In this document: positions 28,795 through 63,379 of the stretch, in pieces
How positions within the stretch are numbered: the first letter of the stretch is position 1
Layout of the letters: each line of letters starts with the position of its first letter
Source of the DNA: a virus
DNA: 64,000 nucleotides
Reading direction: 5' to 3' (one strand)
Virus record (IMG/VR): IMGVR_UViG_3300018080_000105
Coordinates: 1 to 64,000 of that record
The notes under the pieces: model-generated
Databases searched by the model: none
What the model saw: only the letters and a program-made list of their open reading frames with translations
What the model was told of the DNA's origin: nothing
Position numbers and translations under genes: made by a program

Positions 28795-29724
28795 TCACGC
28801 GAAGTCCGCCCGCGCCAGGCCGCCAGAGTGGCCAATGGAGCCACCACAGGTTTCATAGCTGAAGAACTCCAGCATGTAGGCCTCGCGTCTCACGTACATC
28901 GTTGTATCCTCCAGAAGGTAGGATTTCCCGATGAACTTGGGGTCTGCGAACATGAACATCGTGTCATCTGGGACCAAGTCTCGCTTGATCGTGATGATCC
29001 ATCGCATGTTCATGAATTCGGTTTCAGCCCAGCCGTTCTTGACGACGTCCTGGCTGAAGTCACCACCCATTTCGTCACGACCGAACTTCTCGACTTCCTT
29101 GATCGTAACGTTGTTGATCAGTGCTGTGTGAGCTTCCAGATGGCTTGGCCCACGAGGCATGATCTTACGGGCGTCCTGCAACGTCTCACGAGTGATACCA
29201 CCGGAGATCGTTTCCCACTGCACAACGTTGCCGTTGTACGGTACAGGAGTGTCCGGGCCGATCATGGCCTGATTCACGGCAGACAGGAATTTGCTGTCTT
29301 CCTCTGCCAGCATATCCTTGATGGAGTTATCCGACAGAACCTGTCGAATGTCCATCACCCAGGTACGCAGCTCGTCAACGTCTTTGACGAAGCGAGGGGT
29401 AACGATGCGGTCGAACATCACGCGGTAGCGAGGACCACGGATGTACACGTTCGACGGCAGAGTTGCGAACGGGATAGAGATGGCTGCCGGTGAATCCGGT
29501 TCCTTGTCGACGATCTTCACTGGCTTGTCAGTGTCGTACTGACGGTCCAGTTCGTCGTTGCTGATTTGCAGCGGGGGAAGGATTCGACGGTAAACGCCAT
29601 CTTCCCGCATGGTTGTGCGGGTGAAGTCGTTGACCGCGTCGATAGCCTGTTTCTCCATTCCAGGAGTGTTGAGCTGCTCAAACAGTGTTTCGTTGAGCAT
29701 GTCGATTTCGGCACGAGTCGCCAT
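28795..29724 (-). CDS. Major capsid protein, HK97 fold (309 aa)
   Basis: Follows protease, scaffold and decoration genes; backbone-helix pattern RIVTPRFVKDVDELR...DIRQVLSDNSIKDMLAEEDSKFL; strong GGAGG RBS; EKQA at residues 24-27. Confidence 0.85.
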   Translation of the reverse strand: MATRAEIDMLNETLFEQLNTPGMEKQAIDAVNDFTRTTMREDGVYRRILPPLQISNDELDRQYDTDKPVKIVDKEPDSPAAISIPFATLPSNVYIRGPRYRVMFDRIVTPRFVKDVDELRTWVMDIRQVLSDNSIKDMLAEEDSKFLSAVNQAMIGPDTPVPYNGNVVQWETISGGITRETLQDARKIMPRGPSHLEAHTALINNVTIKEVEKFGRDEMGGDFSQDVVKNGWAETEFMNMRWIITIKRDLVPDDTMFMFADPKFIGKSYLLEDTTMYVRREAYMLEFFSYETCGGSIGHSGGLARADFA

Positions 29725-32499: not shown

Positions 32500-34008
32500 T
32501 TAGGCTGCGTAATTCTGCAGCAAGACCAGATCGGCTGTCAACGCTAAATCGGGTTTATGGGTAGGTTGTGCCCCGAGAAAACTCAGTTGGTACAGGGCAT
32601 ATTCTTCGGCCAGCTTACTCACATCACTGTTATCGGAAGCAACCTTCTCGTTCCCACTACGAAGAACAGGAGCTTCTTCCAGGTACAGTGCTGCTCGCGT
32701 CACTCGATCCTGCACGTGTGCCGGATGTAGTGAGAAGTGGCTGGCCAGCTTGGCTGCCCACGTCTCGAACCGGGGCGGTGCGACGGCAACTGACGGTGCG
32801 TAGTGACTTTTCTTCACTCGCGCCGGCAGATCTCCCTTCTCCAACATCCGTGTAAAGATCCCCGGGAGTTCCCGGGAAACCAACGCTGACACGGTCGCCG
32901 CTTTCTCGTGAGAGATATCGGTCGTGGCAGCGAGGAACGCGGACACTGGAAGGCAGATCTGCTGATCTGCCATTGCGCGCAGAGCGTACGCAAACTTATA
33001 GCGGAACTGTGGAGGCAGTTCCAAGTCAGCGTCCTGCACAGAGTCCCGAAACGCTAAGGCAGAAGTCGCCGACAGCGTATTCGGATCCTCGTGTATCTGG
33101 CTTTCTCGGGCGGCCAACAGGTAGGCCGTTTTGATCAGATGCTCGACTTCTTTGGGATAATCACCCTGCAGCATCATTTCGATTGGTTCCACAATGCCCA
33201 TCTGATGGGCCAGCTCGGCGCTCTTAATCACACGCCCATGAACGGCGGCGGATTTCTCCAGAGCGCCCATCACATAAGCGATGCGGTCAGCCGGCCGGTA
33301 GACGTTGCTGATATCGAAGAAGCTGGGTTGTGGGTTGTCAGCGTGCAGATGGTGGATACCGCCATCAATCTCGATCAGCGACCCAATGTTGTCGCGAAGC
33401 CCACCAGCTTTGCACATACCACCCTGGTAGGTCCCGGAACAATAATCAGCAGTAGTAGGAGCCACGTTCGCACAATACGAACAAACGTCGTGCGGAACGG
33501 AGCAGGCCATTGAGACAGCGATCTCTTTGTTCGCTGCCAGCTTTTCCATCTCACGATCAGCAATCAGCCCGCCGTTACGCCGGGCCGCGGCCTCGTTAGC
33601 GTTGAGAGCGACCAGCAGTTCGATCCGCTTCATGGGATCATGCCATGCAGATTTAACCACACGGCCGTAGCTCTTCTTGGGATCTTTGTTCTGATGGTTG
33701 CGATAGAAGCGAGCGAACTTCTCAAAGGTCGGGTGGTACTCGCGACAAACAGAAGCACGGAACCCATCACCGTTACGGTTCGGCCCGTAGAACTCCGTGG
33801 CGCCCATTGCCAACATGTGGACGAGCACCTCGTCGGACGCCACCTTCTCGCGGATACGATCAATGTCCCGGAGCAGGTCGTCAGAAGCGCGCTTCACGAA
33901 CGCATCACGGTCGCTGCCCGTTAGGCCGCGACCTGTGAGTTTGACTTCGCTTACCACGGGCTCGTCGTAATTGAGCGAGTCCGGAGTGACAACTTTGACG
34001 ATGCTCAT
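32500..34008 (-). CDS. Prohead maturation protease (HK97 gp4/S78-like fold) with Cys-rich insert and long C-terminal extension
   Basis: GPNRNGDGF, His in FYRNHQNKD...SYGRV, Ser in AVSMAC, closing FFDISNVYRPAD; CSVPHDVCSYC...C...C insert. Confidence 0.8.
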   Translation of the reverse strand: MSIVKVVTPDSLNYDEPVVSEVKLTGRGLTGSDRDAFVKRASDDLLRDIDRIREKVASDEVLVHMLAMGATEFYGPNRNGDGFRASVCREYHPTFEKFARFYRNHQNKDPKKSYGRVVKSAWHDPMKRIELLVALNANEAAARRNGGLIADREMEKLAANKEIAVSMACSVPHDVCSYCANVAPTTADYCSGTYQGGMCKAGGLRDNIGSLIEIDGGIHHLHADNPQPSFFDISNVYRPADRIAYVMGALEKSAAVHGRVIKSAELAHQMGIVEPIEMMLQGDYPKEVEHLIKTAYLLAARESQIHEDPNTLSATSALAFRDSVQDADLELPPQFRYKFAYALRAMADQQICLPVSAFLAATTDISHEKAATVSALVSRELPGIFTRMLEKGDLPARVKKSHYAPSVAVAPPRFETWAAKLASHFSLHPAHVQDRVTRAALYLEEAPVLRSGNEKVASDNSDVSKLAEEYALYQLSFLGAQPTHKPDLALTADLVLLQNYAA

Positions 34009-41043: not shown

Positions 41044-42939
41044 CTACGGGGTCGTTTTGTTAGTGTCAAGATCCTTCCAGCCCTGGGTTGCTCCATGCTC
41101 CCCAAAGCCAGCTCCGTGGGCCAGGGCCGGCACATAGCTGGTCCCGCCCTCGTCCGATACAGCACCTCGTCGGGCGCCTTCCAAAAGACTGTTTTTCTGG
41201 TAACTACCCAACATCCTGGTCATCCAGTCCGGGTCATGTGCCGCATTCGACATTCCCCGAATCATTTCCGGCTGAAACGGAGGAGGCTCGGTATGTGCGT
41301 AAATCGACCGAACTCCGTGTTTCTGCAGATGTTTTACCATCGAAGGCTGGATCTTGGTACCCACGGAATAATGTAGGACGGGTCGTTCGAGATATTTTCC
41401 TGCTGCCTGGTTCGGTGTAATGACCGCGTGGCCCTCACGCGGTTTCCACTGTCGCTCCAGTAATTGGTAAGGAACCACATCATCCTGGACCCAGTCACCC
41501 ATCTCTTCGGTGAGCCTGACATGGTTGATCAGGCCCCGAGAAAGCAGCTCGATATTACGTCGGTGACCACGTGTTCCCATACCGTCAAGCGTGTCGCGGA
41601 ATGCCTTCACAAAGTACCGTCGACCTTCTCCGACGCCTTTATGCTTTACGACTTCGGCCGGGTTGGGGATTCCTTCGGAGATAACATCTCCGGCTTCGAC
41701 CGTGTCACCCTTTTTGACTTTGAGCTCGTAGCCGTGACCAACATAGTGGTCTTCGTTCCCAATGTGGACGTAGTGTCCGCCCTGCGGAGCTTCTCGCACA
41801 GAGTGCACAGTCCCGTCCAACTGAGCATGTGCCGCACCCGCGGCGAATTTCTTAGGGACTTGCACCAGCTGGTTGATGAACTGGAAACCTGAGATGGCAC
41901 CCGCCCCTGCTCCCGCCACGCCCCCAGAATGCTTTGAGGAAATTTGGGCCTGCGTGATCGGTTCCGCGAGTGCCTGGGCCGCGGCAATACCAACATAGTC
42001 ACCGATTGGCGACAATCCTCCACGTTCGCGATATCCCAAATCACGGGCATAAACTCCGCCGTCCTGCGGCCCGCCCACGGTCGGACTGCGAACAAGTATT
42101 TCATCAATGCCATCAGCTTCCAGCTCTTTCAAAATCTTCGGTGTCAGGACCGTATTGCGTTTGTACCCGCCGATCGGGTGCGCCAGCAGTGAACCAGCTG
42201 TATCTGAGTCGTTCGTATTTACCGGCAAACCGCGTGGCGTAGATTCGTCGTAGGGATCGTCATCATCGTCTGACGTAACCAGCAGGCGATGAGTTGCCTG
42301 CACGAGCTGCTTTGCCAGGAATCCGGCATCCTGTGTCGCACTCTTCAAGTCCTGAATCCCTTTCCTCGCACCGAACGCCCCGGCGAAATACTCATAGGGC
42401 TTCAGTCCCATGGAATAACTGCGAAGCACAGGAATCGGCAATGCGTTGCCGCGGTGGTCGGTGTACAGGAGGTCAGCTCCGCGAAGAGAATTCAGATTTA
42501 CGCTGTTACCCCGCGAACCAGACTGTACCTGCATTGCAAGCGGGTTGCCTTCGTCCTTGGATTCCTGCAGGACATCTTTGTGCAGCTGTCCCTGATATTT
42601 CTGCACAGCGAGCAAGACTGCGGTGTCCTTTTGTTCGTCAGACATGTTGGACGAATAGATCTTGTCCAGTTCCTTCTGCATCTTCATCCGCATCTGCCGC
42701 CCAGCCAGTGACTGTCGCAGAGATTTCAATCCAAATGAATAGCCACCCTCGGAGAACGAAGCATCCCGCCCAATGTCAGACAGGCGTTTGGCGACTTCGC
42801 GATATTTATCCGGGTGTTTATCGGCTACTTCCTGGAGCAAAGCACGGATGCCTTTCTTGTCCAGTACCCGGTCGTGGTCGACCAAGTCTTCTGGCAAGAC
42901 ACTGTTGATCCAGAGTTGTCCAAGAGTCGTTTCCAGCAT
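41044..42939 (-). CDS. rpoC: Two-barrel RNA polymerase, beta' C-terminal subunit (bridge helix, trigger loop)
   Basis: ETTLGQ (TTxGR); bridge helix GARKGIQDLKSATQDAGFLAKQLV; trigger loop AAAQALAEPITQAQISSKHSGG; C-terminal LLEGARRGAVSD. Confidence 0.93.
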   Translation of the reverse strand: MLETTLGQLWINSVLPEDLVDHDRVLDKKGIRALLQEVADKHPDKYREVAKRLSDIGRDASFSEGGYSFGLKSLRQSLAGRQMRMKMQKELDKIYSSNMSDEQKDTAVLLAVQKYQGQLHKDVLQESKDEGNPLAMQVQSGSRGNSVNLNSLRGADLLYTDHRGNALPIPVLRSYSMGLKPYEYFAGAFGARKGIQDLKSATQDAGFLAKQLVQATHRLLVTSDDDDDPYDESTPRGLPVNTNDSDTAGSLLAHPIGGYKRNTVLTPKILKELEADGIDEILVRSPTVGGPQDGGVYARDLGYRERGGLSPIGDYVGIAAAQALAEPITQAQISSKHSGGVAGAGAGAISGFQFINQLVQVPKKFAAGAAHAQLDGTVHSVREAPQGGHYVHIGNEDHYVGHGYELKVKKGDTVEAGDVISEGIPNPAEVVKHKGVGEGRRYFVKAFRDTLDGMGTRGHRRNIELLSRGLINHVRLTEEMGDWVQDDVVPYQLLERQWKPREGHAVITPNQAAGKYLERPVLHYSVGTKIQPSMVKHLQKHGVRSIYAHTEPPPFQPEMIRGMSNAAHDPDWMTRMLGSYQKNSLLEGARRGAVSDEGGTSYVPALAHGAGFGEHGATQGWKDLDTNKTTP

Positions 42940-43879: not shown

Positions 43880-44487
43880 CAGTTGATCTCCGAATCAGAT
43901 TGGCACGGGCATACGCCGTCATTCATCTTCTTGCCGAAATTGCAATTTGCGCACAACGTCTGCAGAGTATCTGGGAAACCATTCTGAATAGCCCAACGAT
44001 ACAAGTTCGTGGGACCGATTTCCTTCCGGTGAAGATACCCGTCATCGTTCACATGGTCAATTTGTAAGAAATACTCGCGAGTTTCGCCACAGCAGACGCA
44101 TTTCCGTCCGTAGTGATCAAAGACTTGTGACTTCTGCCGCTGATACCGCTCAACCTTCTTGGCCTTGCAGCCCAAGCAGTAAACTCCCGTCTCTACCGGA
44201 GTAGTACAGGTCGGACACAGGCCGGCTTCTCTCCAGGCTGCTCTCCGTTCGTTACTGTTCCGCTGCTGGCTCTTGGCACAGACGGCGCATCTTACACGCC
44301 CAGCTCGGGGTGAGCGAACCCCGCAGTTGACACATTTCCCCGAATTCTTCCGCCGTTCTCGCCGGTCCCTGGATTTCGCCTTGGCGATCTCCGCACAGGC
44401 AGGGCACAGAGCCTTGTCGGTCGGAGTCTCGCACTCAGTGCACTGACCCGCAGCACGACGCCGCCTGTATTGCATGAGGGAAGCCAT
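43879..44487 (-). mobile_element. HNH endonuclease with multiple CxxC zinc fingers
   Basis: CTEC, CPAC, CVNC, CAVC, CPTC, CLGC; HNH core CVCC...LQIDHVNDDG...LQTLCANCN; single-base overlaps with both neighbours. Confidence 0.85.
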
Positions 44488-47400
44488 TATTTCTCCATGA
44501 TCTTGACCCGCCGACCGACGCCGATCTTGCCCTGTTTGTAGGCTTTGACCGCATCCTGGACAGTGGCGAAAGTGGCGGGGGCGTTCTTCTTGTCCTGCTG
44601 GGCCGAGGCTTCGTAGAGGCCTCCGATATATTCTTGGGAAGGTAAAAAATGTACGCCAAAAGAAGCTGCGCTAAACAAATTCCTGGATGGCAACATTTTC
44701 TGCAGCGCCTCTTCCTTCGCGTCGTCGTCCAGCGGGACGTGATACTGCATGGCGTCCCCGTCGAAATCTGCACCAAATCCGCCCACCACGAGAGGACTAA
44801 TCTTCAAAACGGTGCCTTTCACCAGCCGTGGACGGGCTGCCATGACACCATACCGGTGCAACGTGGGAGCCCGGTTGATCACCACCACGCCACTTTCCAT
44901 CTCGTCCATCATGGCTTTTCGAGCTGTCGGGGTCTTATCTTCAACAGCCCGAGCAGCATCCACACGACTCATACCGCGTCGCACCATCCGGCGAATCATC
45001 GTCGGGCGATAGATCTCCCAGGCTGTCTCTTCCGGAATACCCACTTGATCCATATCGAGGTCAGGGTCCGGGGCAATCACTGAACGACCAACCATGTCTG
45101 TAGAGGAACCCAGCAAACGACGCTGAACCGTCCCGGTCTTTGGGGACGATCCAAAGATGTGTTTCAGAATTCCTTTGACCTTCCGCTCCTGATTCTTTGG
45201 GTGCGTCGGATCACCGAGACCTGTCACGGCTTTGAACGCCTCGTATGTTGCGAGACGTTCATCACCAATATCCTCTTCGTCAAGCTGTTCAGACAACTGC
45301 TTCAGATTGTTGTTTGCATCCCACAGCTCTTTGTAGAGATAGTTCGGGTCCGCAACGAGTGGTAACTTCTTCGCACCCATCGTCGACACCGGACGAAACG
45401 CCGGAGGCAAAACAGGGGCGCGCTTCAGCACCCAGTCTCGCGGATGGATGTTGAGACGCTTTGCACTCTTCAGATATCCGAGCCGGCGGACCGCTTTGTC
45501 TCGGTGAGTCTTCTTCCCGCTGGCGATCTCAGCTCGTGCCCTCGCAATCTCCTTGTCGAGTTCGAGCCCGTTGAGTGCGGCGGCAACAGCGCCCGGACCG
45601 ACACGTCCGTTGAGCTTCTCGCGGCCCGCCAGAATGTCGTTGAACTTGTTCTTTGTCAGCCCCAGCAGCCGCCTGATCGGTTCCTCCATCACAGGGTTCG
45701 GCATGGGTTCCGCAAGTTTGATCGCTGCCCATCGGTTTCCTCCTCCATCGGCGGTTTGGTGCCCGCCAGTCAGCGACTGGTCAAAGAGTCCGCCTTTTGA
45801 CGGCTCCATCGTCTTCCAGTCTACGGTTTCAACATTCTTCAATTCGCGTTCGCCAGCCAGTTCATCAACGTCCTTGTCGGTGAGTGCCATGATATGCACT
45901 TTGTCACCGTTGCGGACCACGTTGATCCCTGACGCTTTCAGACTGTTCACGAACTTACGGTACACATGCGGCACCTCCGGAGTCGGAGGTTTGAACCCGC
46001 TCATATACTGTGCCCAGTAATCCGGATTGGCCTGGCCCCGGATGATGCTGCCGTCTCGAACCACCGATGTAGCTCCGTGTGACAGCAGTGCGTTTGTTTC
46101 CAACATCCCGACACGTTTAGCGCCAGTCTTCCCGCCCTTCGCCGGCGTACGCTCGGCGGTGTATGAGCCAATGCCGCGACCCTGCGCTTTGGAATCAGCT
46201 GTGTGGTGCAGCTTCATCACCCAACGATTACCGGTGAAGATGTCATTCACCTTCCGGTCGTTGGTTGGGTCGATGATTGTCTCCGTGTCTTCCAACCCGG
46301 CTTTCTGAAGTTCGCGTAACGCGAACTCGATCATGTCTTCCTCGTCCTGGAAGTCTGGAACCTTGAATGGCTCACCACGTTTGGCCGCGATCTTTCCAAG
46401 AGCAGCTTCCACAATCTGAGCAGGATTGGTACGGCTGATGACACCCAACGGGTTAAGCAACAGATCGTAGGCTTTGCCATCCTGGTCGGTCGGCATTTGA
46501 TCGTCGGGAATGACGTGGCTGATGATCCCTTTGTCGCCATACCGTCCGCTCAGCTTGTCGCCGACCTTCATTGGGATAGATGCCTTCACAACCACCGACG
46601 CACCCTTCGGCGTCTGGACTACATCAATCACTTCGCCATCGTAGTCGTGGTCCCACTTTAGACTGACGTCCTGAAAGCTGGGCTTCCCACCTTTCAGCAG
46701 ACTCTTCTTGTTTCGTTCCTTTTCACGCGCCACCAGGATCAGTGGGTCGCCTTCTGAGACTTTAGTACCGGGCTTTACCACACCTTCATCGTCGAATCGC
46801 TCCAGAATGTCGCGCCCGTACTTCGACGGAAAGATCGACTGGAACGATTTACGTCCGCGGTGGTCACTCTTCTCCCAGTCATGCGAGTTCTGGTAAGTGT
46901 GCTGCGACGACATTCGCTTCGCGAACGATGCACTGATGACATTGGCATCTTCAAAGTTAAGGCCACCCCATGGAACGTACGCCACACGGGCATTCATTCC
47001 GAGAGCAGTAGTACCCTGTTCGTCTGTGAAGTTAGAGCGCGCCAGCAACTGTCCAGCCTCAAACTGATCACCAGGTTGGACAGTGGCTGTCTGATGCAAG
47101 CTGGTCTTCCGATTGAACGGGAAGTTGTTGTACAGAGGTAGCTCTGCCTTTTTCCCGTCGGCGTAGCGAACCTTGATCCCGTCCGGCGACACCGCTTCAA
47201 CCACCCCTGGCTGGTCAGCGTGAAGGGCGCCCATCTTGTCGGCATACTCTTGCTCGAAGCTGCGACCCTCAACGCCGGGCATCCCTGATTGCACGAGAGG
47301 AGCCTCGGCACCATCCAACGGCATAGCCTGCGTAAGCATTCGTGCGGCCATCACCGCTCGCTGCCCCTTCACCATGGATTTCATGGGGATCATGTTGCCG

Positions 47401-48914
47401 AGAGGACTGAACGTGTCCTCCATATCGGGCACCTCGAAGTCAACCTGTGACTTGTTGACGGTGCGGACCTTGCCGCGAACCAGCGCTCGCACAAAGTCCT
47501 GATCCTTATTCATCTCATTCGGGAACGCTACCACAGAGTCCGCAAAGTCTCGCGGCGATTTGTACACGGTCTGACCGTCCAGTGTCTTCACTGGCGTGTA
47601 CAGTTGTCCGTCTTCCCCTTTGACCGCTCCACGGGCTAATCGCACATCCACGCCAACCTTGCCGCTCTCCGGGGTCCGGAGGAAGTCGATGAAGCCGAAC
47701 TGAGATGGCTGAACCGCGCGGCTCTCGTCCGGGATAGCGTCCAGCGACGTGATACCGCCCTCGCCCATCCGCGTTACACGAGACTGCTGGTCGTACACCT
47801 CGGCCGGGTTGATCTCTTCCAGCGGAGATGCCAGCCCGGAACTCATGAGCGTCGACATCACCGTGTCCTGGTAGGGACTGGTCGCCAAGTTGTCGAGATT
47901 CTTCCGCGGCGTTGCCTTCCACAGCATCTGCCGGGCCACGTTCTTAGCTCGCGACAACCGATCAGCAAACAGGTCTTCGGGACCGTACAGCTTCTGATAA
48001 GCCAACGCGTCACGGTCATCCTCTTCGTCTTCGTCTTTCGCCACACGGATCAGTTTACGGGTGACTTCCAACAGCGTGTCCGCATTGACGTTCTTTACCC
48101 CACGGCCCAGTGTTCGCTGCGTCACCTCCGGATCCAGTTCCATCTCTTCAAACGACTTCACAACAGCAGCCACCTGCCCGAGATCGTCGGCAGTGCCGTT
48201 GCGGTGCAACTTTTTGTACAGCTTACCGATCGCACCTTTGTCGAGCTTCTTCATATTCTCGGCGGTCAGCTCGTTACCCCAGGCCTCTCGCAGCTGCCGG
48301 TCTTCGACACCCATAGCCTTCAATAACGGCATCAGCGGAATACGAGCCTGTCCCATCTGAATGCGGAACACACCGGTCGCGGGGTCGAGGTACAGACGAT
48401 GGCCGTACCCTTTGGAGACATTGACGTGGCTCTCGATCTCGCCGTTGCTCTTCCGGCGAGTGAAGATGCCAGGCCGCAGCCGGGCCTGGTGAGCCATTGT
48501 GTACTCGTTACCGTTCAAAATGAACGTGCCGCGCTGGGTCATGTACGGGACCTTCGCCAGCTGCATGCTACGGCGGGAGACCTCGTTGCCTTCCAGATCT
48601 CGCAGCACGGCATCACCAGTCAGCTTCCTCGCGAGAGTCCCGCGGGCCAGCAAGGCCTTCTTCTGCGCAGCAATGTCGTAGCTGTCCGGCCCGGCCCATC
48701 GCGGGTTTTCGATCGCCAACTGATACTGAGAGTTGCTGACTGGCTCAAACGACTTCGCTGCGGCCAACACGTTGTCAAAAATCATTTGACGCGTACGGGC
48801 GGCGTCTCCGAACCGCCGAAAGTTCCCCGGCCCAACCGCCGGAGCGGGAGCCACTGGAGTTGTCGGCGTCGGTGCGGGTTCTTGATCGTCCAGAATACTG
48901 GGATCAGGCCGCAT
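44487..48914 (-). CDS. rpoB: Two-barrel RNA polymerase: full beta fused to beta' N-terminal half including the catalytic DFDGD
   Basis: Beta motifs YMTQRGTFILNG, RTPESGKVG, NFEDA, GDKLSGRYGDKG, LLNPLGVISRTN, KLHH...GAKRVGMLE; beta' motifs GGLFD, PVLPPAFRP, GRSVI, NRAPTLHR, GADFDGDAM, PSQEYIGGLY. Confidence 0.96.
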   Translation of the reverse strand: MRPDPSILDDQEPAPTPTTPVAPAPAVGPGNFRRFGDAARTRQMIFDNVLAAAKSFEPVSNSQYQLAIENPRWAGPDSYDIAAQKKALLARGTLARKLTGDAVLRDLEGNEVSRRSMQLAKVPYMTQRGTFILNGNEYTMAHQARLRPGIFTRRKSNGEIESHVNVSKGYGHRLYLDPATGVFRIQMGQARIPLMPLLKAMGVEDRQLREAWGNELTAENMKKLDKGAIGKLYKKLHRNGTADDLGQVAAVVKSFEEMELDPEVTQRTLGRGVKNVNADTLLEVTRKLIRVAKDEDEEDDRDALAYQKLYGPEDLFADRLSRAKNVARQMLWKATPRKNLDNLATSPYQDTVMSTLMSSGLASPLEEINPAEVYDQQSRVTRMGEGGITSLDAIPDESRAVQPSQFGFIDFLRTPESGKVGVDVRLARGAVKGEDGQLYTPVKTLDGQTVYKSPRDFADSVVAFPNEMNKDQDFVRALVRGKVRTVNKSQVDFEVPDMEDTFSPLGNMIPMKSMVKGQRAVMAARMLTQAMPLDGAEAPLVQSGMPGVEGRSFEQEYADKMGALHADQPGVVEAVSPDGIKVRYADGKKAELPLYNNFPFNRKTSLHQTATVQPGDQFEAGQLLARSNFTDEQGTTALGMNARVAYVPWGGLNFEDANVISASFAKRMSSQHTYQNSHDWEKSDHRGRKSFQSIFPSKYGRDILERFDDEGVVKPGTKVSEGDPLILVAREKERNKKSLLKGGKPSFQDVSLKWDHDYDGEVIDVVQTPKGASVVVKASIPMKVGDKLSGRYGDKGIISHVIPDDQMPTDQDGKAYDLLLNPLGVISRTNPAQIVEAALGKIAAKRGEPFKVPDFQDEEDMIEFALRELQKAGLEDTETIIDPTNDRKVNDIFTGNRWVMKLHHTADSKAQGRGIGSYTAERTPAKGGKTGAKRVGMLETNALLSHGATSVVRDGSIIRGQANPDYWAQYMSGFKPPTPEVPHVYRKFVNSLKASGINVVRNGDKVHIMALTDKDVDELAGERELKNVETVDWKTMEPSKGGLFDQSLTGGHQTADGGGNRWAAIKLAEPMPNPVMEEPIRRLLGLTKNKFNDILAGREKLNGRVGPGAVAAALNGLELDKEIARARAEIASGKKTHRDKAVRRLGYLKSAKRLNIHPRDWVLKRAPVLPPAFRPVSTMGAKKLPLVADPNYLYKELWDANNNLKQLSEQLDEEDIGDERLATYEAFKAVTGLGDPTHPKNQERKVKGILKHIFGSSPKTGTVQRRLLGSSTDMVGRSVIAPDPDLDMDQVGIPEETAWEIYRPTMIRRMVRRGMSRVDAARAVEDKTPTARKAMMDEMESGVVVINRAPTLHRYGVMAARPRLVKGTVLKISPLVVGGFGADFDGDAMQYHVPLDDDAKEEALQKMLPSRNLFSAASFGVHFLPSQEYIGGLYEASAQQDKKNAPATFATVQDAVKAYKQGKIGVGRRVKIMEK

Positions 48915-54618: not shown

Positions 54619-56391
54619 TCAGAATTCGTCGCGAACAATCTTCTGGAGAATCTTGGAAACTCCGTCAGTGCCTTTGACGATCTCTGGTTCCCCCGTACCT
54701 CCAACGGGGTAGACGACGATCTGCGGCAATTCTTTGAACCGAAGTCCCTTGCCTTTCACGTCGTACAGGACGATGGCTGGATACTTGGCCTTGGCAGCTT
54801 CGTACTCACCCTTCATTCTGTTCCAATGGTCAGCGGAAGTATCCGTTACAAGTACCATGTGGTCAACGCCAGTGCTCTGCTGGAGCGCCCAGAGGACAGA
54901 AACGTCAACGTAGGCGGGACTGATGTAACGCCCTGATTCGACTTTGAGCGTGACGGCCGCCTCTGATGGATTATCCCGAAGCTCCCGTACCAATTCCAAA
55001 ATCTTAACCTGGTTTTCCTGAAGCCCCTGAATGCCCTGTAGCAACGATTCATGCTCACCGCTGGGTGCCGATAGCTTCCCAGACAACTCGTCCTGTTTAT
55101 CCGCCAGTCCCTGGATCAGTTTGATTAACTGCTCGTGATCCCTTCTCAACGAGTGCTGGTTCTCGATAAGCACGTTGATCGGATCCAATAGGCCAGGAGC
55201 CGGTGTCGGATTGTTGGCCGGCGGGCCTGTCGGCGTGTCCGGGTTGCCAGAAGGCGGATTGCCTGATGGCGGGGTGTCCGGCACAGAATCCGGGACAGGT
55301 TCAGTAACAGGTTCCGAAGGAGGAACAACAACGGGCTGCTCACCACCCAAATCTTCCGTGGGATGCGGGAAAACTTGCGGAGGCGGCGACTGCGGGCGGC
55401 TTCGAGGCGGCTGCGGCGAAACAGGGCGACGTGGCTGCGCGCGAGGCTGAGGATAGTATGGGTAGCATGGTTGCGACGGATAACACGGCTGACAACTCGG
55501 GGATGATGGCGGACAACACCAGGCATACGTTTCACTGACCTTCGTTCCGAGGAACGTTGTGATCGTGCCGGCATAGGTCCCTATCGATCCAGAGGAGTCC
55601 CCGCCCCAGAACACACCAACCAGTTTTCCGTTCGTATCGAACATCGGGCCGCCACTGTCACCTCTACGAAGATGACCAGACGCCACCAGCAACTGATTGT
55701 TGCCGCTCGTCACAAACTGATGCGAAGGGTGTCCCGGAACAAACTTACCAGGCGAGTCCGCTTTGTAGCCGGCGGAAGTGTAACCTTGCAGCGCGCCAAA
55801 GTGTGCCCGGTAAATGTTGCGTGTCCCGCCGAAACCCGCCACGCCAATGTTAGGCTCTTTATCTGGATCAATGATCTTCGTATTGATCTCCATCGGGACA
55901 GTGCCTTTAGGAGCATACACTGCCAACGCACACAAATCATTTTCCCAGTCAAGCGCCAGCACCTTGGCACTTGACCGCATGCCTTTGAACTCTGCGACCG
56001 GTTTCTGCGATTCGGCACATTGAATATCACCGCACTCAAAGATGTGAGCGCACGTCAGAATGACCGCGGTGACCCGTCCATCTTTTTCCGGACGAGTGGC
56101 GATAACCGTCCCAGTGCCCAGCGAACGAGTCCTGGTCATGTGCAGCCGCACGACCGAACTACGAACGCGATTGTACAGCGCAACCGCTTCTCTATCGCTC
56201 GCCTTCGGAGACCACACGGCACCGCCCGAAGCACGGTTACGCGCAACCTTGTAACTGCGCGTCGGGGAGTTCGGATCCTGTGGGACCCGAAACACATGAA
56301 ACCCTTCCGGATTGAACTTCACCGGGAGGGCGGCATAGGTCTGTGACACCAGCATGACCACTGCCACGAGAACGCTGAAAATCCGTTTCAT
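54619..56391 (-). CDS. Secreted trypsin-like serine protease with Pro-rich linker, coiled coil and C-terminal domain
   Basis: Signal peptide; catalytic triad ILTCAH, NDLCAL, GDSGGP. Confidence 0.88.
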   Translation of the reverse strand: MKRIFSVLVAVVMLVSQTYAALPVKFNPEGFHVFRVPQDPNSPTRSYKVARNRASGGAVWSPKASDREAVALYNRVRSSVVRLHMTRTRSLGTGTVIATRPEKDGRVTAVILTCAHIFECGDIQCAESQKPVAEFKGMRSSAKVLALDWENDLCALAVYAPKGTVPMEINTKIIDPDKEPNIGVAGFGGTRNIYRAHFGALQGYTSAGYKADSPGKFVPGHPSHQFVTSGNNQLLVASGHLRRGDSGGPMFDTNGKLVGVFWGGDSSGSIGTYAGTITTFLGTKVSETYAWCCPPSSPSCQPCYPSQPCYPYYPQPRAQPRRPVSPQPPRSRPQSPPPQVFPHPTEDLGGEQPVVVPPSEPVTEPVPDSVPDTPPSGNPPSGNPDTPTGPPANNPTPAPGLLDPINVLIENQHSLRRDHEQLIKLIQGLADKQDELSGKLSAPSGEHESLLQGIQGLQENQVKILELVRELRDNPSEAAVTLKVESGRYISPAYVDVSVLWALQQSTGVDHMVLVTDTSADHWNRMKGEYEAAKAKYPAIVLYDVKGKGLRFKELPQIVVYPVGGTGEPEIVKGTDGVSKILQKIVRDEF

Positions 56392-56404: not shown

Positions 56405-57244
56405 TTACGACGGTTTGAGGGTGAGTTCCATTCCGTCCAGATTGATGGTGACCGTCCCTGTCACATCGAACGGCCCTTCAGGAAAGGCCGGAGCGCAAGG
56501 CTCAGAAGCATTGGGTGCCGGGGTTGGGGTTTCTTCCAAACCATAGACACGGGCCAGCCTGGCCTTGTCGCCTTCTTGTGGGTAGATCACCTGGGGATTG
56601 TAGTAAGGAGCCATCAGGTCGGCCGGATCAGCACTGTGCTCCAAGCCCATCAGATGGCCAAGTTCGTGCAACCACACGGCCCTCATAATGACACCTGGGC
56701 CGGACTCACGCAAGTTCCATGGCTCCGTATCGTCGAACATCGACAAAAGCTGAGGGTCGCCAGCCCTGCAAGGCAGCTCCGCCCAGGCCAGGACATTTCC
56801 GGGGCCGTCAAAGTCCCATCTACTGCCCCGTCCACGACCTACGCGTATATCTGCCTCGTTCCAATTATTGATTTCAACAAAGGTCTTACCCGTCAACGCC
56901 TCGTAGTAGGTGAACCCCTCCCGCACGATATTCTTGCTTTTCTCGACCTGCCCAGCCAACCGAAACTTGCTGCCAATCGAGTACGTGATGGTGTCCTTTT
57001 CCCATTTGCAATGATTCCCGTCAACCCTTACAGGCTGCCGCAGCGGGCCGTCGCCCCTCGCGCACCGAAACAACCCCATCGCCCGACGTGTCACCGGGCC
57101 AGCAATTGCATCCTCCACCAGCCCGTAGATCTTTTGCATCTGTACAATCGCTTTATCGAACTCATCGGCTGTCGGGTAACGTGAGAGCAGATACCCAAAA
57201 TGATGCAACCAGGCGATCGTCTTCTGCGGCGTATCAATGGGCAT
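56405..57244 (-). CDS. Matrixin (M10) zinc metallopeptidase with N-terminal peptidoglycan-binding-like pro-region
   Basis: HELGHLMGLEH plus Met-turn LMAPYY; AIVQMQKIYGL...GIAGPVT-like helix and RCARGD (cysteine-switch-like). Confidence 0.88.
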   Translation of the reverse strand: MPIDTPQKTIAWLHHFGYLLSRYPTADEFDKAIVQMQKIYGLVEDAIAGPVTRRAMGLFRCARGDGPLRQPVRVDGNHCKWEKDTITYSIGSKFRLAGQVEKSKNIVREGFTYYEALTGKTFVEINNWNEADIRVGRGRGSRWDFDGPGNVLAWAELPCRAGDPQLLSMFDDTEPWNLRESGPGVIMRAVWLHELGHLMGLEHSADPADLMAPYYNPQVIYPQEGDKARLARVYGLEETPTPAPNASEPCAPAFPEGPFDVTGTVTINLDGMELTLKPS

Positions 57245-58456: not shown

Positions 58457-60121
58457 TCACCTTAGTCCAAGAACAGAGCCAGTTACACCGCGAATCATAC
58501 CGCCCCACAATCCCATGTTCTGCAACTTCTTCTGGGCTTGTGGTTTGAGACCGCCAAGAACTCCAAGAACGCCACCCGCGATATGTGCCGTCGCCAAATC
58601 CACGCCGGCTGTCGCCAACCCGCGAATGAAATGCCGCGGCGACAACATCGACGGATTACCATGTAGTTGCTGCACGCCGGTAACCAGTCCGGAAGCAGCC
58701 GCTGCGTGCATCGGTGGAGTGTGGCGACCAGCATCACCCCAAATTGCACGATTAAACGCGTCAACCGGGACAGACTGTAACGCTACCCCGCGACTGCCCG
58801 TGTACCCACTGGAGTTCACTGCGCGTTTAATTCGGTTGACACTTTTCTCAAACTGATCGGACGCTGTGAGTCCCAACGTGTCGAGGTAATCCAAAGCCTG
58901 CTGCTGCGCGCTGGCCTTGTAGTGATTCATATAATCAATTTCGCTCGGAGCGATGTTCTGCTGCGTGACCGGCTGCAGGAATGACTTCCGCCACTGCGGC
59001 TTCCCGGTCGCGTTCTGGTTCATCTGTGCATTAGCCAAGCCTTGTGGGACATGTAAAGCCGCGCCGCCAAGCCCGCCGAGTATCGCCAGGTTCCGTCGCA
59101 GTTTACCGCGTTCCAGGTACTCTTCTGGCAGCAACTGCTCAGCAAGCCAGCCACCGCCGTAACCCAGCCCGGCGCCCAGCAACCCAGACACGATGGAGTT
59201 GGACATTGCCGAAGGCCCACCGGTCAGCTTACCCGCCGCACGGTATGGCAACCCCAGGTACTCCAGCGCAGAGGCTTTCTTGACCATGATCCAATTATCA
59301 GAGTCAGACGGGCCAACCTCAGATTCGGCGATGACTTTGTCGACCCCGTCGATCGAGTTGACGGCTTTCTCCCACTGCTCATAAACCTCTCGGCCGTCAG
59401 AGTCACCAAGCACGATCCACGCCGTCTTGTTTTCCGGATGCCAGTAAACGTAACCGTAACCAGGCATAGCCGGCAGATCTTTAATCGCCGTCTTTAGGGC
59501 GTCCCGGATGGCAGCCGCGAGCTTTAAGCGTTGGGTGACAAGTGCCGGGACCTGTCGCCACAGCGACAGTTCGCCCTTTTTTTCGATGCGTTTGATAGTT
59601 TCATCAGCCACGGTTTTCCATGCCCTCCTGGCGTCTACTGCGCGGTCGTCGAGATAGAGGTCCGCTACAACTTTGTCTGAGGCATCTTCCGGCTGGTCTG
59701 GGTTCTCGTTGATATGGTCGAACGGAATATCGTGTTCTTCCAACCAGCTGCGAACCAGTTTTTTGTCACCACGCACCGTGTTAATGATGATCTGATAACC
59801 CTCGTCCCGAAACCGCTGCATACTCTTCTTGGCGCCCGGCCTCGGCTTCTCGATCTTCTTCGGATCGAACTTGTCGTACATCGAAGCTAGCGTGCCGTCG
59901 AGATCTACAGCCACTGTGGGGAGTCGGTCCGCACGCGACTTCCCCGCAGCGGACTTTCGTCGCCCATCCAACACAGCACTGAGGCCGTCCAGCGGCAGAG
60001 AGGCTTCGGGGGTTTGTATGATCGTGGATAGTCGCGACATTGCGTTTCCCATGACTCCATGGCCTCTTTGAACCACTTCCAGAAAGCCGCGATCGCTCGC
60101 CGCCTTTGTTTGCTTCTCCAC
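58457..60121 (-). CDS. HAD-phosphatase / glycine-zipper multidomain protein; true start probably further upstream
   Basis: HAD motifs VAVDLDGTL, IINTVR, K, LYLDDR; C-terminal Gly zippers; K-x-A linkers; no Cys. Confidence 0.8.
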   Translation of the reverse strand: MEKQTKAASDRGFLEVVQRGHGVMGNAMSRLSTIIQTPEASLPLDGLSAVLDGRRKSAAGKSRADRLPTVAVDLDGTLASMYDKFDPKKIEKPRPGAKKSMQRFRDEGYQIIINTVRGDKKLVRSWLEEHDIPFDHINENPDQPEDASDKVVADLYLDDRAVDARRAWKTVADETIKRIEKKGELSLWRQVPALVTQRLKLAAAIRDALKTAIKDLPAMPGYGYVYWHPENKTAWIVLGDSDGREVYEQWEKAVNSIDGVDKVIAESEVGPSDSDNWIMVKKASALEYLGLPYRAAGKLTGGPSAMSNSIVSGLLGAGLGYGGGWLAEQLLPEEYLERGKLRRNLAILGGLGGAALHVPQGLANAQMNQNATGKPQWRKSFLQPVTQQNIAPSEIDYMNHYKASAQQQALDYLDTLGLTASDQFEKSVNRIKRAVNSSGYTGSRGVALQSVPVDAFNRAIWGDAGRHTPPMHAAAASGLVTGVQQLHGNPSMLSPRHFIRGLATAGVDLATAHIAGGVLGVLGGLKPQAQKKLQNMGLWGGMIRGVTGSVLGLR

Positions 60122-60325: not shown

Positions 60326-61243
60326 CTATGTGCCTTTTCGAGGCCGCTTCTTCGGAGTCTTCTTCGGAGTCTTCTTCGGAGTCTTTTTCCGTGGTGGAAT
60401 TTCGGGAACTTTTCGCTTTGGACGTTTCTTTCGCTTGGGTTTCTTCAGTACGTGTTTTGGTGCCTTCTTTTTTCGCTTTTCATTCTTTCCCTCCAACACG
60501 TCCTGCCGGCCACGGGCTCTTTTCTTCCTGCGACGCGGACCTTTTGGTTTACCGTCCGGATGATCTTCCTTCCACAGCACCTTCTCTTCTCTCACCATAG
60601 GCGTCTTACCATCGACGTCGACTGGAATTGGCTGTTCCTCAATCGACGGCAACACGGGAAGATCATCGAGGTCAATCTCCGGAGGCACAATCACTCCGTT
60701 CCGAATATCTTCAGCAATCTGCATGTGAGTGTACGGGTACTCACCGTTCTCGGCTTTCCACTCGTCGTGAACTTGTTGCACAAGATCAGGCAACAACGCC
60801 GCAGAGCCATTGTTGTCGATGACAATGTCACAGTCTTCCGGACGAATTTGACAAGAGTCCACATTCTCCGGCGGATGACGTTGCGACGCATCAACCCAAA
60901 TGGACACATCCACCAGACCGATATCTTTCAACGCCTGCAACTCAGCAGTGCGGCGGATGCCTTCAAGAATGTCATTCTCTTCCAGCATGTCAACGTAGAG
61001 TGTCAAACCGCTGGGCTCGTTGTACTGCCAGATGATGTCGGCCCACTCGGCACGGTGGTTGTGGCGATCATCCCAGCACTCCTCGATGCTCTGATAGCCG
61101 TAAACCGACTTCAAAGTCTCATAGACGACACGTGCCGCGCCTTCGCTGGTGGATTCTTTGTACGCAAGGCCACTGATGCTGGAAAGAATTCGTGCTGTTG
61201 TACCTTTGCCGTGCCGGCCGTAGCCGCAAATCGCAACTGCCAT
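60326..61243 (-). CDS. dNMP-kinase-like P-loop protein with a very basic C-terminal tail
   Basis: ICGYGRHGKGT P-loop, EGIRR..EL, DIVIDNNGS; tail KPKRKKRPKRK...KKTPKKTPKKTPKKRPRK. Confidence 0.7.
   Translation of the reverse strand: MAVAICGYGRHGKGTTARILSSISGLAYKESTSEGAARVVYETLKSVYGYQSIEECWDDRHNHRAEWADIIWQYNEPSGLTLYVDMLEENDILEGIRRTAELQALKDIGLVDVSIWVDASQRHPPENVDSCQIRPEDCDIVIDNNGSAALLPDLVQQVHDEWKAENGEYPYTHMQIAEDIRNGVIVPPEIDLDDLPVLPSIEEQPIPVDVDGKTPMVREEKVLWKEDHPDGKPKGPRRRKKRARGRQDVLEGKNEKRKKKAPKHVLKKPKRKKRPKRKVPEIPPRKKTPKKTPKKTPKKRPRKGT
60348..60383. repeat. 12 bp tandem repeat, three copies, encoding (T)PKK units
   Basis: TTCTTCGGAGTC x3 on the plus strand. Confidence 0.9.
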
Positions 61244-62371
61244 TTATCGCACTCCCTGCAGGAAACGGTCCAATGGATGATGCACCAGTGGCTTCCGTTG
61301 ACCTGACAGGTATGAAGACAGCTGACGCATGGAACGATCTGGATCAGCAGCATTTGCCAGCCGATCCTGTGCGGCAGCCTCGCTGATTGCTCGGTCACCG
61401 CGATGCTTGACCGCCCCCACATGGTTTACCAGATTATCGAGCACTCCGCGAGTGTGGTCGTACTGAAACGGAGTCTGATTGATTGCATTCATGTAGACGC
61501 TGCCGGCCTGCTTGGGTTCGCCGTACGGTTTTCCTTTGTACTGGTACTTCAACGGCCCCAGCACATTAGTTGTACGAACATAGTCAGCCGTCAGCTCCTC
61601 GCCAGAGACAATGTCTCGCAGAGCCCGCATCTGGACATACCCGTCACCTTTGACAATTTCAGTGTTCGGACTGTCCGAGTGATTGGTGTAACGAGCGTCA
61701 TCTGATTGTTCATAGACGTGCTTGCCGTCTTCGTTATCCGGCAAAACTGTCATCAGGCGATCAACGATGATGTCGCCATCGCTGAACTTCTGCGCAGCGA
61801 ACAAACCTTTACCGTGAATAGCCGACTCCCCCACACGGACGGACCTCGCGGCCGCCTTTTGCATGTGGATCATCGACGGCTGTCGTCGTTTCTTCTTACG
61901 GATAGCAAACGTCACATGGAACGGATACTGCGGCGGGCCGAGGCCCAGGTTACGACGAAGCTCCATCAGCCCCGGCGACTTGGCTTCCAGCGCCCAGCAC
62001 TTGGAAACACCGTCCCACGTATGCGGTGTGATCTTTCGGACCACGCCCAGGTTGAACCCGAACATTTGCCCGCGTTCTTTGATCCCGTCCGGGCCGCCGA
62101 TCGATTCCAACTCTTCAGGACGCGCCACAGAGATGTGAGCGTTGTACTGCCCGCTGGAGTCCTGTTTCGGTTGCTCGACCCCGGGTTCGTCAAGAGCCTG
62201 AAACGCACCATTCCCGATTGCATTGGGAACGTCAAGCAAAAGCCATCCAGAGTTGGAAAGGTACAGCTTCCCTTTCATCGCATATGACAGCGGGGGACGT
62301 GCGTCCGCCTGTTTATCTCGCTGCGACAATAGAACAGCCGCTTCCCCGATATCGTATAACGATGCAGACAT
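61244..62371 (-). CDS. 2H phosphoesterase + SET domain + C-terminal domain fusion
   Basis: 2H motifs HIS (H79) and HVT (H152); SET motifs SAIHGKGLFA, RYTNHSDSPN, ALRDIVSGEELTADY. Confidence 0.85.
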   Translation of the reverse strand: MSASLYDIGEAAVLLSQRDKQADARPPLSYAMKGKLYLSNSGWLLLDVPNAIGNGAFQALDEPGVEQPKQDSSGQYNAHISVARPEELESIGGPDGIKERGQMFGFNLGVVRKITPHTWDGVSKCWALEAKSPGLMELRRNLGLGPPQYPFHVTFAIRKKKRRQPSMIHMQKAAARSVRVGESAIHGKGLFAAQKFSDGDIIVDRLMTVLPDNEDGKHVYEQSDDARYTNHSDSPNTEIVKGDGYVQMRALRDIVSGEELTADYVRTTNVLGPLKYQYKGKPYGEPKQAGSVYMNAINQTPFQYDHTRGVLDNLVNHVGAVKHRGDRAISEAAAQDRLANAADPDRSMRQLSSYLSGQRKPLVHHPLDRFLQGVR

Positions 62372-62376
62372 ACCAG

Positions 62377-63135
62377 TTACTTAAAAGAGTTGGCGGCACC
62401 TTTGAGCCGGCCTGCCAGCAAAGTGCACCGCAAAAATGTCGCGTCTGAGATACTGCCTTCATGAGCAGCGAAAGAACAATATGTAACCGCCCGGGACTCG
62501 CTATTCGGTAAGTCCCGATCTTCAATGTGAAACCATGCTGACGCGGATACACCTTCTGCCTGGTAAATCTGTTTGATGCCCACGTCGTCCGGAAGGGCGT
62601 CCACATCAAAACGGATTTTGCCCGTACGAGAGATTTCCTGCAATCGTAAAATATAGTCACTGTCCAGTTCGTAATGCACGTAACTGATTGGCTCTTGCTG
62701 CCCTTGTCGCACCTGCAATACCGCCGTCGTCCATCTTGGTGACAGCACACCATTCCACGCCCGCAGGATCAGGAAACGATCGATATTGGTGTTTTCCATT
62801 AAATTGTCGAGCTCGCTTACAACATCCGACCATTCTTCCATGAACGAAGAAAAATCCAAGCTCGCAACTTGGAACTCCATCTCGTTCTCAGCCATCACCC
62901 GTGCTTGGTTGTGCTTCAACACCCCGAGGTAGCCGAAATAAGCGGTGACGCAAACGCCCGCAAAACCAATCCCAGCAACGATGACTTCTGTTGAGAGTTT
63001 GTGATCCTTAAAGGACTGCACTCCGAACGTGATGCCAACCGTCACAAGCACAGAGAGTAACGCTACGACCACGAGAAGAGCTAGATGGGCGGGGAATGTA
63101 AGCGGAAGAACATAATCCTTTTTACGGTCACTCAT
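62377..63135 (-). CDS. Two-TM membrane protein with GAF-like soluble domain (~252 aa; start moved to MSDRKK)
   Basis: Two hydrophobic helices, then an alpha/beta domain ending GVSASAWFHI...TYCSFAA. Confidence 0.55.
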   Translation of the reverse strand: MSDRKKDYVLPLTFPAHLALLVVVALLSVLVTVGITFGVQSFKDHKLSTEVIVAGIGFAGVCVTAYFGYLGVLKHNQARVMAENEMEFQVASLDFSSFMEEWSDVVSELDNLMENTNIDRFLILRAWNGVLSPRWTTAVLQVRQGQQEPISYVHYELDSDYILRLQEISRTGKIRFDVDALPDDVGIKQIYQAEGVSASAWFHIEDRDLPNSESRAVTYCSFAAHEGSISDATFLRCTLLAGRLKGAANSFK

Positions 63136-63379
63136 CGGCGCTTTGCATCCTTTCGGCGACGACACAACGACAACTATCGGACCCCCTGCCATCCCCGAGC
63201 GACAGGGTCCGGGCTCTCAAAGAGAACCACAACAGCGGCATACTCGGGTACTTCCACTGCTCCACCTCCCCCACCGTAGGCGTTTACCAGATGAGGTTTC
63301 CAAAACTCCCTAACGAATCCATTTCGCTGGATGTTCTCTACCGGTCGGTACCTCGACCAATCCGATAACTGTCGTTGTA

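Follow-up and report, generated by a model that had tools for sequence, protein, structure and literature searches.

A candidate polyvalent cargo protein of an uncultured phage, with 2H and SET domains and a conserved K-x-A motif at its joints

Prior work has described polyvalent cargo proteins, 2H modules and head proteases directed by a motif. The internal proteins and Alt of phage T4 carry an N-terminal capsid-targeting sequence that is cut by gp21 at L/I-x-E (5jbl, MEROPS S77), and the T4 cargo includes anti-defence and host-modifying enzymes. In the phiKZ gp175 and SPN3US gp245 systems (PMC10052503, PMC5694885), a large phage with a multisubunit virion RNA polymerase (RNAP), ejection proteins and many internal head proteins uses a maturation protease directed by the motif A/S/G-x-E. 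The herpesvirus assemblin (MEROPS S21), which is fused to a helical scaffold-like half, cuts at V/L-x-A↓S maturation and release sites. Polyvalent proteins, as defined by Iyer et al. (2017, J Bacteriol, PMC5512222), combine two or more unrelated effector domains in shuffled architectures, and 2H and InPase are listed among their phage-type modules. In this study, we analysed a window of 64,000 nucleotides (positions 1 to 64,000 of the IMG/VR virus record IMGVR_UViG_3300018080_000105), and found that one of its genes encodes a 2H phosphoesterase domain and a SET lysine methyltransferase domain between a short leader and a helical tail, with the tripeptide K-x-A at each boundary. We refer to its product as the 2H-SET protein.

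The locus shares with T4 a short leader ending in a putative head-protease motif, a protease fold (VIA Z 11.2) and a motif common to scaffold, protease and capsid proteins, and the 2H-SET protein as candidate cargo recalls the enzymes carried by T4. Unlike in T4, the motif is K-x-A instead of L/I-x-E, and it is also found where enzyme domains adjoin and ahead of a C-terminal module; this would imply a polyprotein. Like phiKZ and SPN3US, this is a large phage with a multisubunit RNAP, many candidate internal head proteins and a candidate motif-directed protease, but the motif differs, the RNAP is a beta-beta' fusion of another lineage, and the mapped cuts of SPN3US yield N-terminal propeptides only. 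The proposed sites resemble those of assemblin in having Ala at P1 and Ser or Ala at P1', and the protease is likewise fused to a helical scaffold-like half; they differ in Lys at P3, there is no detectable sequence similarity, and the scissile bond is placed here by analogy. As in polyvalent proteins (PMC5512222), several effector enzymes occupy one phage polypeptide, the architecture varies among homologues, and the gene lies among virion genes. However, that paper does not mention SET, does not describe a fixed 2H head and a fixed tail around a variable middle, and ascribes processing to built-in zincin-like MPTase domains, whereas we propose a linker code read by a head protease. In the literature searched, we found no description of a K-x-A code, of SET in a phage polyvalent protein or of the fixed-ends architecture. 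What is new is that the K-x-A code appears also to mark the places where enzyme modules meet, and does so across a large family of proteins.

The 2H-SET gene and its family

The source record is a single contig of 184 kb from an uncultured phage (89% complete by CheckV), and every large gene in the window lies on the same strand. The 2H-SET gene is tightly spaced in a long co-oriented operon, with the TAA of its 5' neighbour, five bases and its own ATG on one side, and TAAATG on the 3' side. A preliminary description of this DNA had divided the product into leader, 2H domain with H79 and H152, SET domain and helical tail, with K20-Q-A, K172-A-A and K287-Q-A at the boundaries, and the open reading frame (ORF) list, Pfam and an AlphaFold2 (AF2) model bear this map out. 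The features of the gene are as follows.

61244..62371, minus strand: whole gene, 375 amino acids (aa) plus stop, with leader, 2H-SAK, SET and tail in one polypeptide (ORF list, Pfam, AF2 model)
62306..62371, minus strand: leader, residues 1-22, amphipathic helix 5-18, ending in K20-Q-A22 (62306-62314) (AF2, family homology)
61898..62290, minus strand: 2H-SAK phosphoesterase domain, residues 28-158, with H79-I-S (H79 at 62135-62137) and H152-V-T (H152 at 61916-61918) (Pfam PF22547, conservation)
61847..61897, minus strand: basic flexible linker, residues 159-175, with K172-A-A174 (61850-61858) three residues before the first SET strand (AF2 confidence, conservation)
61523..61846, minus strand: minimal SET lysine methyltransferase domain, residues 176-283, with G187-K-G, N230-H-S-D, E259 and Y264 (Pfam PF00856, PDB profiles, Foldseek, VIA)
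61505..61513, minus strand: third junction motif, K287-Q-A289, within the low-confidence stretch 285-289 (K-x-A before the tail in homologues)
61247..61504, minus strand: helical C-terminal tail, residues 290-375, of no known family, a candidate anchoring or packaging module (AF2 helices 292-371, family conservation)

The AF2 model, built with 15 homologues in the alignment, has a mean predicted local distance difference test score (pLDDT) of 71. It folds into a helix (5-18), a mixed alpha/beta domain, putatively of the 2H fold (28-158), a beta-rich SET domain (178-283) and helices (292-371), and pLDDT falls below 50 solely at residues 21-24, 63-75, 158-175 and 285-289. The protein contains exactly three K-x-A, and all three lie inside these stretches, in three of the four. 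Could three K-x-A of a Lys/Ala-rich protein simply happen to fall near domain borders? Their number is indeed at the expectation (3 vs 1.93, p = 0.3, Poisson), and because this test is not significant, the argument is built on position and conservation rather than on the count. The low-pLDDT stretches overlap ~13% of tripeptide positions, so that three of three in linkers corresponds to a probability of ~0.002; thus the placement of K-x-A, unlike its count, exceeds chance. Furthermore, the same junctions carry K-x-A in more than 100 homologues of 35-86% identity. Coincidence is contradicted by these family data, and we give it hardly any credence.

An HMMER scan returned more than 1000 relatives at E<1e-3, 257 of them below 1e-30. 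The leader, which is homologous throughout the family, stands with the 2H domain at the N-terminus of relatives that are 166-1627 aa long. Among 78 longer members, all with 2H-SAK, the partners are InPase (31), SET (30), SNF2 helicase (4), the LigD_N 3'-phosphoesterase (3), HAD (2) and a C39 peptidase (1). Regardless of these middle domains, the helical tail of 88 residues forms the extreme C-terminus of most long members. The family plan thus seems to consist of a constant head of leader and 2H, a constant helical tail and an exchangeable middle, with K-x-A at the joints. By its domain composition, the 2H-SET protein can be assigned to the polyvalent proteins of Iyer et al., and the Pfam families for this closest class are PF22547 (2H-SAK) and PF18823 (InPase). 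When the 2H-SET protein was compared by tblastn with 50,697 phage records, one weak SET match but no 2H-SAK relative was found; therefore no cultured phage carries it, and none could supply proteomic evidence. In the Atlas, the tail (residues 285-375) matched nothing beyond generic helical proteins, all under the lead threshold.

The conservation of the motif was counted at two joints. At the post-2H joint, 143 homologues were anchored on the second catalytic His, and a window of 17 residues after the domain was examined. K-x-A lies 10-24 residues past this His in 90 of the 143, and K-x-[AGS] in 115, compared with 12% in control windows elsewhere. The leader is closed by K-x-[AG] in 120 of 126 leader-bearing members. 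The logos read L-(E/V/T)-K-x-A/G-(A/G)-D for the leader and N-(E/D)-V-S-K-A-A-S after 2H, where K-x-A-(A/S) is conserved in the linker of homologues. In the 2H-SET subfamily, K-x-A is found in front of the C-terminal tail as well and on both sides of an inserted InPase domain, and the variable parts of the family are still 1.48-fold enriched in K-x-A. Taken together, these alignments argue that K-x-A is a conserved linker signal. One relative of 392 aa (P0120), with the order SET-InPase-tail, begins with M-T-S-L-I-H, which corresponds to the residues after the first post-2H K-x-A of fused forms; this start might reflect either a real division of the protein at the joint or an error of gene calling.

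K-x-A in the head module and the proposed processing

The preliminary description had proposed a cargo system, and the idea of one K-x-A code common to cargo and head proteins gains support from the head module of the same phage, where K-x-A is the top pattern and a gp21-fold protease is encoded, together with the conservation at the cargo joints. We scanned all residue pairs at gaps 0-2 (~1200 patterns) against the expectation from composition. In the ORFs of the head module (28-41 kb), K-x-A ranks first, with 55 occurrences vs 19.6 expected (p 4e-11). The same scan did not place K-x-A among the top patterns in the rest of the genome, nor the T4-type I/L-x-E among the enriched patterns of the head module. 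In gp217-225 of Salmonella phage Arash, which belongs to the sole lineage of cultured relatives (capsid 29%, RNAP 30% identical), K-x-A again ranks first, with 46 vs 22.8 expected (p 1e-5), and the sites read h-x-K-x-A-(S/A). For the T4 prohead core (gp67, gp68, gp21 and gp22), which served as the positive control, the scan placed I-x-E first, L-x-E second and K-x-A twentieth. The scan thereby recovers the experimentally known gp21 code, which validates the method. Two head genes bear on the proposal.

32500..34008, minus strand: candidate processing enzyme, a 502-aa prohead protease (gp21/assemblin fold, residues 1-238) with a helical scaffold-like half (AF2, Foldseek, VIA)
28795..29724, minus strand: HK97-fold major capsid protein (MCP), with K25-Q-A27 near the N-terminus (PHROG and NCBIfam capsid matches)

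The first product contains 13 K-x-A vs 3.4 expected. Self-cleaving head proteases are themselves studded with their own motif. The AF2 model of the protease has a pLDDT of 83 and its top Foldseek match is T4 gp21 (5jbl), against which residues 1-238 align by VIA with a Z of 11.2 over 151/165 residues, followed by the assemblins of varicella-zoster virus (Z 6.1) and human cytomegalovirus. The model thus indicates that the phage has a gp21/assemblin-fold protease-scaffold fusion rich in K-x-A; the orthologue in Arash is gp222. NCBIfam has no match for the 2H-SET protein, the prohead protease or the scaffold-like proteins. In the capsid motif, K and A are fixed and x is variable across 120 orthologues, and the Arash MCP (gp226) carries K27-E-A. 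The published mass spectrometry of Arash virions gives coverage figures only, with 86.6% for the MCP, and is silent on removal of an N-terminal peptide (PMC10585845). As side observations on the protease, its domain contains a Cys-rich, zinc-ribbon-like insert (C169, C176, C179, C190 and C199, invariant or nearly so), and several orthologues contain LAGLIDADG/Hint inteins.

It is therefore reasonable to propose, with a probability of about 0.5, that the 2H-SET protein is a head-loaded polyvalent cargo precursor processed at h-x-K-x-A-(A/S/G). The leader, the tail or both would help to bring the precursor into the prohead, and the prohead protease would cut the K-x-A joints and remove the leader. 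By analogy with L/I-x-E↓ of T4 and V/L-x-A↓S of herpesviruses, the cut would probably fall after Ala. The products would probably be a 2H enzyme of ~17 kDa, a SET enzyme of ~13 kDa and a tail of ~10 kDa, and these pieces would exit the capsid with the DNA and the virion RNAP and act in the first minutes of infection. The 2H enzyme may then hydrolyse 2',3'-cyclic or 2'-5'/3'-5' phosphodiesters, in defence signalling nucleotides or RNA ends, and the SET enzyme may methylate a lysine in a target protein, either from the host or packaged alongside it. Loss of the leader is likelier than a complete cut into all pieces. The wider proposition, that a widespread clade of uncultured 150-230 kb phages uses a constant frame with exchangeable cassettes, from which a gp21-fold protease of previously undescribed K-x-A specificity frees individually active enzymes in the capsid, one of them a lysine methyltransferase for a bacterial protein, is tentative, and we consider it less likely than not.

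Several points weigh against processing. In addition to the chance-level count of K-x-A in the 2H-SET protein, the 49-66 kb gene block as a whole is not enriched in the motif, and the AF2 model of the 375-aa protein is of moderate confidence. The first and third sites are without the hydrophobic -2 and the A/S +3 that are favoured by head-protein sites. The preliminary description had called this gene the clearest single example of the cargo system, which is not supported as stated: two of its sites, the N-terminal one and the one before the tail, agree poorly with the extended consensus. It is the family, not the 2H-SET sequence alone, that makes the case. The spacing between the catalytic His and the post-2H Lys is almost constant (+18), and in many members a conserved S-L-I-H follows this Lys; for these reasons, the Lys could belong to the domain or to a docking element instead of a cut site. 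The mapped head-protease cuts of SPN3US, self-cleavage aside, remove N-terminal propeptides and do not separate domains (PMC10052503). Finally, the cleavage, packaging and enzyme activity of family members are inferred.

The last points lend themselves to another explanation, in which the protein works intact as a multi-domain enzyme and K-x-A is a conserved but uncut linker element or a docking site that serves packaging, binds a partner or caps a domain, or in which only the leader is removed. Both the fixed post-2H Lys with its S-L-I-H and the propeptide-only cuts of SPN3US would fit such an enzyme, as would the polyvalent proteins of Iyer et al. (2017), which are delivered whole or processed by their own MPTase domains (PMC5512222). 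However, the motif lies outside the Pfam 2H model, in linkers of pLDDT<50, and the same motif precedes the tail, flanks the inserted InPase and closes the leaders of unrelated proteins. Moreover, K-x-A is top-enriched in the scaffold-like and protease proteins, as I/L-x-E is in T4. We therefore consider an intact enzyme rather unlikely.

If the joints are cut in the proposed way, the family would represent a modular polyprotein system that loads several host-takeover or anti-defence enzymes into the phage head by a simple, portable address-and-cut code. Such a code could predict the injected proteome of a very abundant, uncultured phage group from sequence, and could serve to load foreign proteins into capsids. 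It is directly testable in the cultured relative Arash, whose virion data from liquid chromatography-tandem mass spectrometry are published.

Candidate activities of the 2H and SET domains

The 2H domain is matched by Pfam 2H-SAK (PF22547) at residues 55-160 with 27.6 bits, barely above the cut-off of 27.0, and the same family is matched by all 78 scanned homologues (best E 7.9e-14); no other 2H Pfam family scored on the 2H-SET protein at E up to 1. H79-I-S81 and H152-V-T154 form two H-x-T/S motifs ~70 residues apart. Both His are invariant in homologue sets of 15, 27 and 78, T154 is invariant, and S81 is conserved in at least 90%. Whole-model lists from Foldseek and VIA are dominated by SET, and the sole 2H-type row is a BFVD 'Swiss Army Knife 2H' protein (rank 50, TMt 0.51). 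The 2H family sequence profile gave no meaningful match against the PDB.

The preliminary description had linked this domain to T4 Acb1 (gp57B), which acts against the cyclic-oligonucleotide-based antiphage signaling system (CBASS). The domain resembles Acb1 (PMC9117128) in belonging to the 2H superfamily, in its two H-x-T/S motifs and in being phage-encoded. But Acb1 is a free-standing protein of 152 aa without family-level similarity to the 2H-SAK domain here: hhalign of the 2H family profile (A3) against T4 gp57B gave a probability of 1.7% over 39 columns, and Pfam assigns the domain to 2H-SAK, so that the link to Acb1 is not supported as it was put. Sequence comparison thus points to a 2H enzyme outside the Acb1 family, and because there is no Acb1 family similarity and Pfam places the domain in 2H-SAK, an anti-CBASS role is only one option, at the superfamily level.

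The genes on the 3' side suggest a different role, which depends on two products.

60326..61243, minus strand: P-loop kinase domain (phrog_38514, with a weak match to deoxynucleoside monophosphate (dNMP) kinase), abutting the 2H-SET gene through TAAATG
58457..60121, minus strand: PNKP-like HAD phosphatase (residues ~60-183) fused before a conserved Gly-rich protein of ~400 aa

With the kinase and the phosphatase, the 2H domain could form an RNA end-healing kit, in which it would be the cyclic-phosphodiesterase arm. Such a kit would mend tRNA or mRNA after cleavage by anticodon nucleases of the host, instead of degrading defence signals. The genes for three healing-type activities are neighbours, the HAD domain matches PNKP-type phosphatase families (PF25109, E 0.0027; phrog_415, E 4.5e-8), the family partners include the LigD 3'-phosphoesterase and HAD, and RNA ligases are present in Arash virions (PMC10585845). 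Against such a kit, PF09414 and RtcB (PF01139) had no match in the 184-kb record while the controls matched, and no homologue of the Arash ligases gp120 and gp143 was found; a search with the ligase family PF09511 gave no match for the record or for its control, and is hence uninformative. The kinase and HAD genes are not kept beside 2H-SET in the related loci L001 and L002, and the closest named family of the kinase is dNMP kinase, not Pnk. Furthermore, Iyer et al. (2017, PMC5512222) note that they never saw the 2H domains of polyvalent proteins in association with RNA ligases. A healing kit is thus unlikely.

For the 2H domains of polyvalent proteins, a role against nucleotide signals or as RNases has already been proposed in general terms (Iyer et al. 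2017, PMC5512222). Because the kinase and HAD are not conserved partners, no RNA ligase was found and the 2H domains of Iyer et al. are without ligase association, we lean, tentatively, to the degradation of nucleotide signals or an RNA-directed action for the 2H domain of the 2H-SET protein. The family would add a large group of 2H proteins as candidate degraders of defence signals or damaged RNA ends.

The SET domain is clearly recognised by Pfam (PF00856, residues 222-264, 41.6 bits vs a cut-off of 22.4), and PDB profiles match MLL1, SET8 and vSET (E 9e-12). By VIA, residues 172-269 align with MLL1 SET with a Z of 12.5 (root mean square deviation 2.6, 95 aligned), and Foldseek gives a TMt of 0.66 to PBCV-1 vSET and 0.81 to a marseillevirus SET. 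Among 2H-SET homologues, G187-K-G189, N230, E259 and Y264 are invariant and H231 is conserved in at least 90%, so that the GxG, NH and catalytic Tyr motifs are intact. The sequence agrees with the earlier remark that the motif is NHSD rather than NHSC and that post-SET cysteines are absent: C124, in the 2H domain, is the sole Cys of the protein, and there are no pre-SET or post-SET Cys clusters. Because it is without zinc clusters (NHSD, no Cys past residue 124), the domain is a minimal viral-type SET. Many but not all SET enzymes carry a post-SET Cys cluster, and vSET is also without one. The solved minimal vSET, found by the PDB profile match, has 119 residues, and since it too is without the cluster, the missing cluster does not exclude membership of the SET family. 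Like PBCV-1 vSET and other minimal viral SETs, the domain has a core of ~110 residues, no pre-/post-SET zinc clusters, the catalytic Tyr and NH(S) motifs; unlike vSET, it is an internal module of a candidate bacteriophage cargo protein.

The similarity to vSET raises the question of whether the K-x-A lysines could be methylation targets of SET, as in A-R-K-S-A of histone H3K27, instead of protease sites. SET enzymes recognise short lysine motifs, and vSET methylates H3K27, in a K-S-A context, and the Foldseek match of the SET domain to vSET is close. However, K-x-A enrichment is equally strong in Arash, where tblastn found no SET homologue, and SET is present in just 30 of the 78 family members while the motif is present in nearly all. 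Methylation of the motif is accordingly very improbable. Because the host is without histones, the substrate must be a non-histone protein; candidates include proteins of the host nucleoid or of translation, or one that is packaged alongside, e.g. the neighbouring kinase. This kinase has a very basic tail with TPKK-type repeats, which would be fitting for a protein that is packaged while bound to DNA, or for a substrate of SET. The proposed cargo role would point to a SET lysine methyltransferase that acts inside bacteria at the onset of infection, for which no described example was found in the literature searched.

Genomic neighbourhood

The phage encodes a fused beta-beta' RNAP (44487-48914, minus strand, 1475 aa) and a 631-aa beta'-C chain (41044-42939, minus strand), embedded in a structural block among head genes. 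The 2H-SET gene lies ~12 kb upstream of the fused RNAP in the direction of transcription, in a co-oriented block, and in L002 a 2H-SET gene of 36% identity lies ~9 kb upstream of the same polymerase type. The Arash orthologue of this RNAP is the most abundant protein of purified virions by spectral count (PMC10585845).

L001, L002 and the window share a conserved backbone, and the unrelated enzyme genes set between its parts vary: the window has a kinase, HAD, a crotonase-fold protein, a matrixin and a trypsin-like protease, and elsewhere there are PAP2, a papain-like peptidase and Band_7. The HAD fusion offers a comparison with the leader of the 2H-SET protein. The Gly-rich protein stands alone in L001 (13896-15092) and L002, and K200-L-A after the HAD domain aligns with K23-E-A, which closes the short leader of the HAD-less L001 orthologue. 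By this alignment, the HAD of 58457-60121 appears to be a second local case of an add-on domain before a conserved K-x-A leader.

Other genes of this region are as follows.

54619..56391, minus strand: trypsin-like serine protease, 590 aa, with an N-terminus resembling a secretory signal peptide
56405..57244, minus strand: matrixin (M10) metalloprotease with a peptidoglycan-binding domain, adjoining the trypsin-like protease in the variable enzyme island upstream of the RNAP
62377..63192, minus strand: protein of 271 aa (phrog_29276) with hydrophobic segments like those of membrane proteins, immediately upstream of the 2H-SET gene and absent there in L001 and L002

Outside the window, the portal protein of Arash finds its best match in the product of 125101-127161 of the genome (minus strand), with 27% identity over 487 aa. 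This gene lies ~80 kb from the head module, whereas in Arash the portal gene adjoins the RNAP gene.

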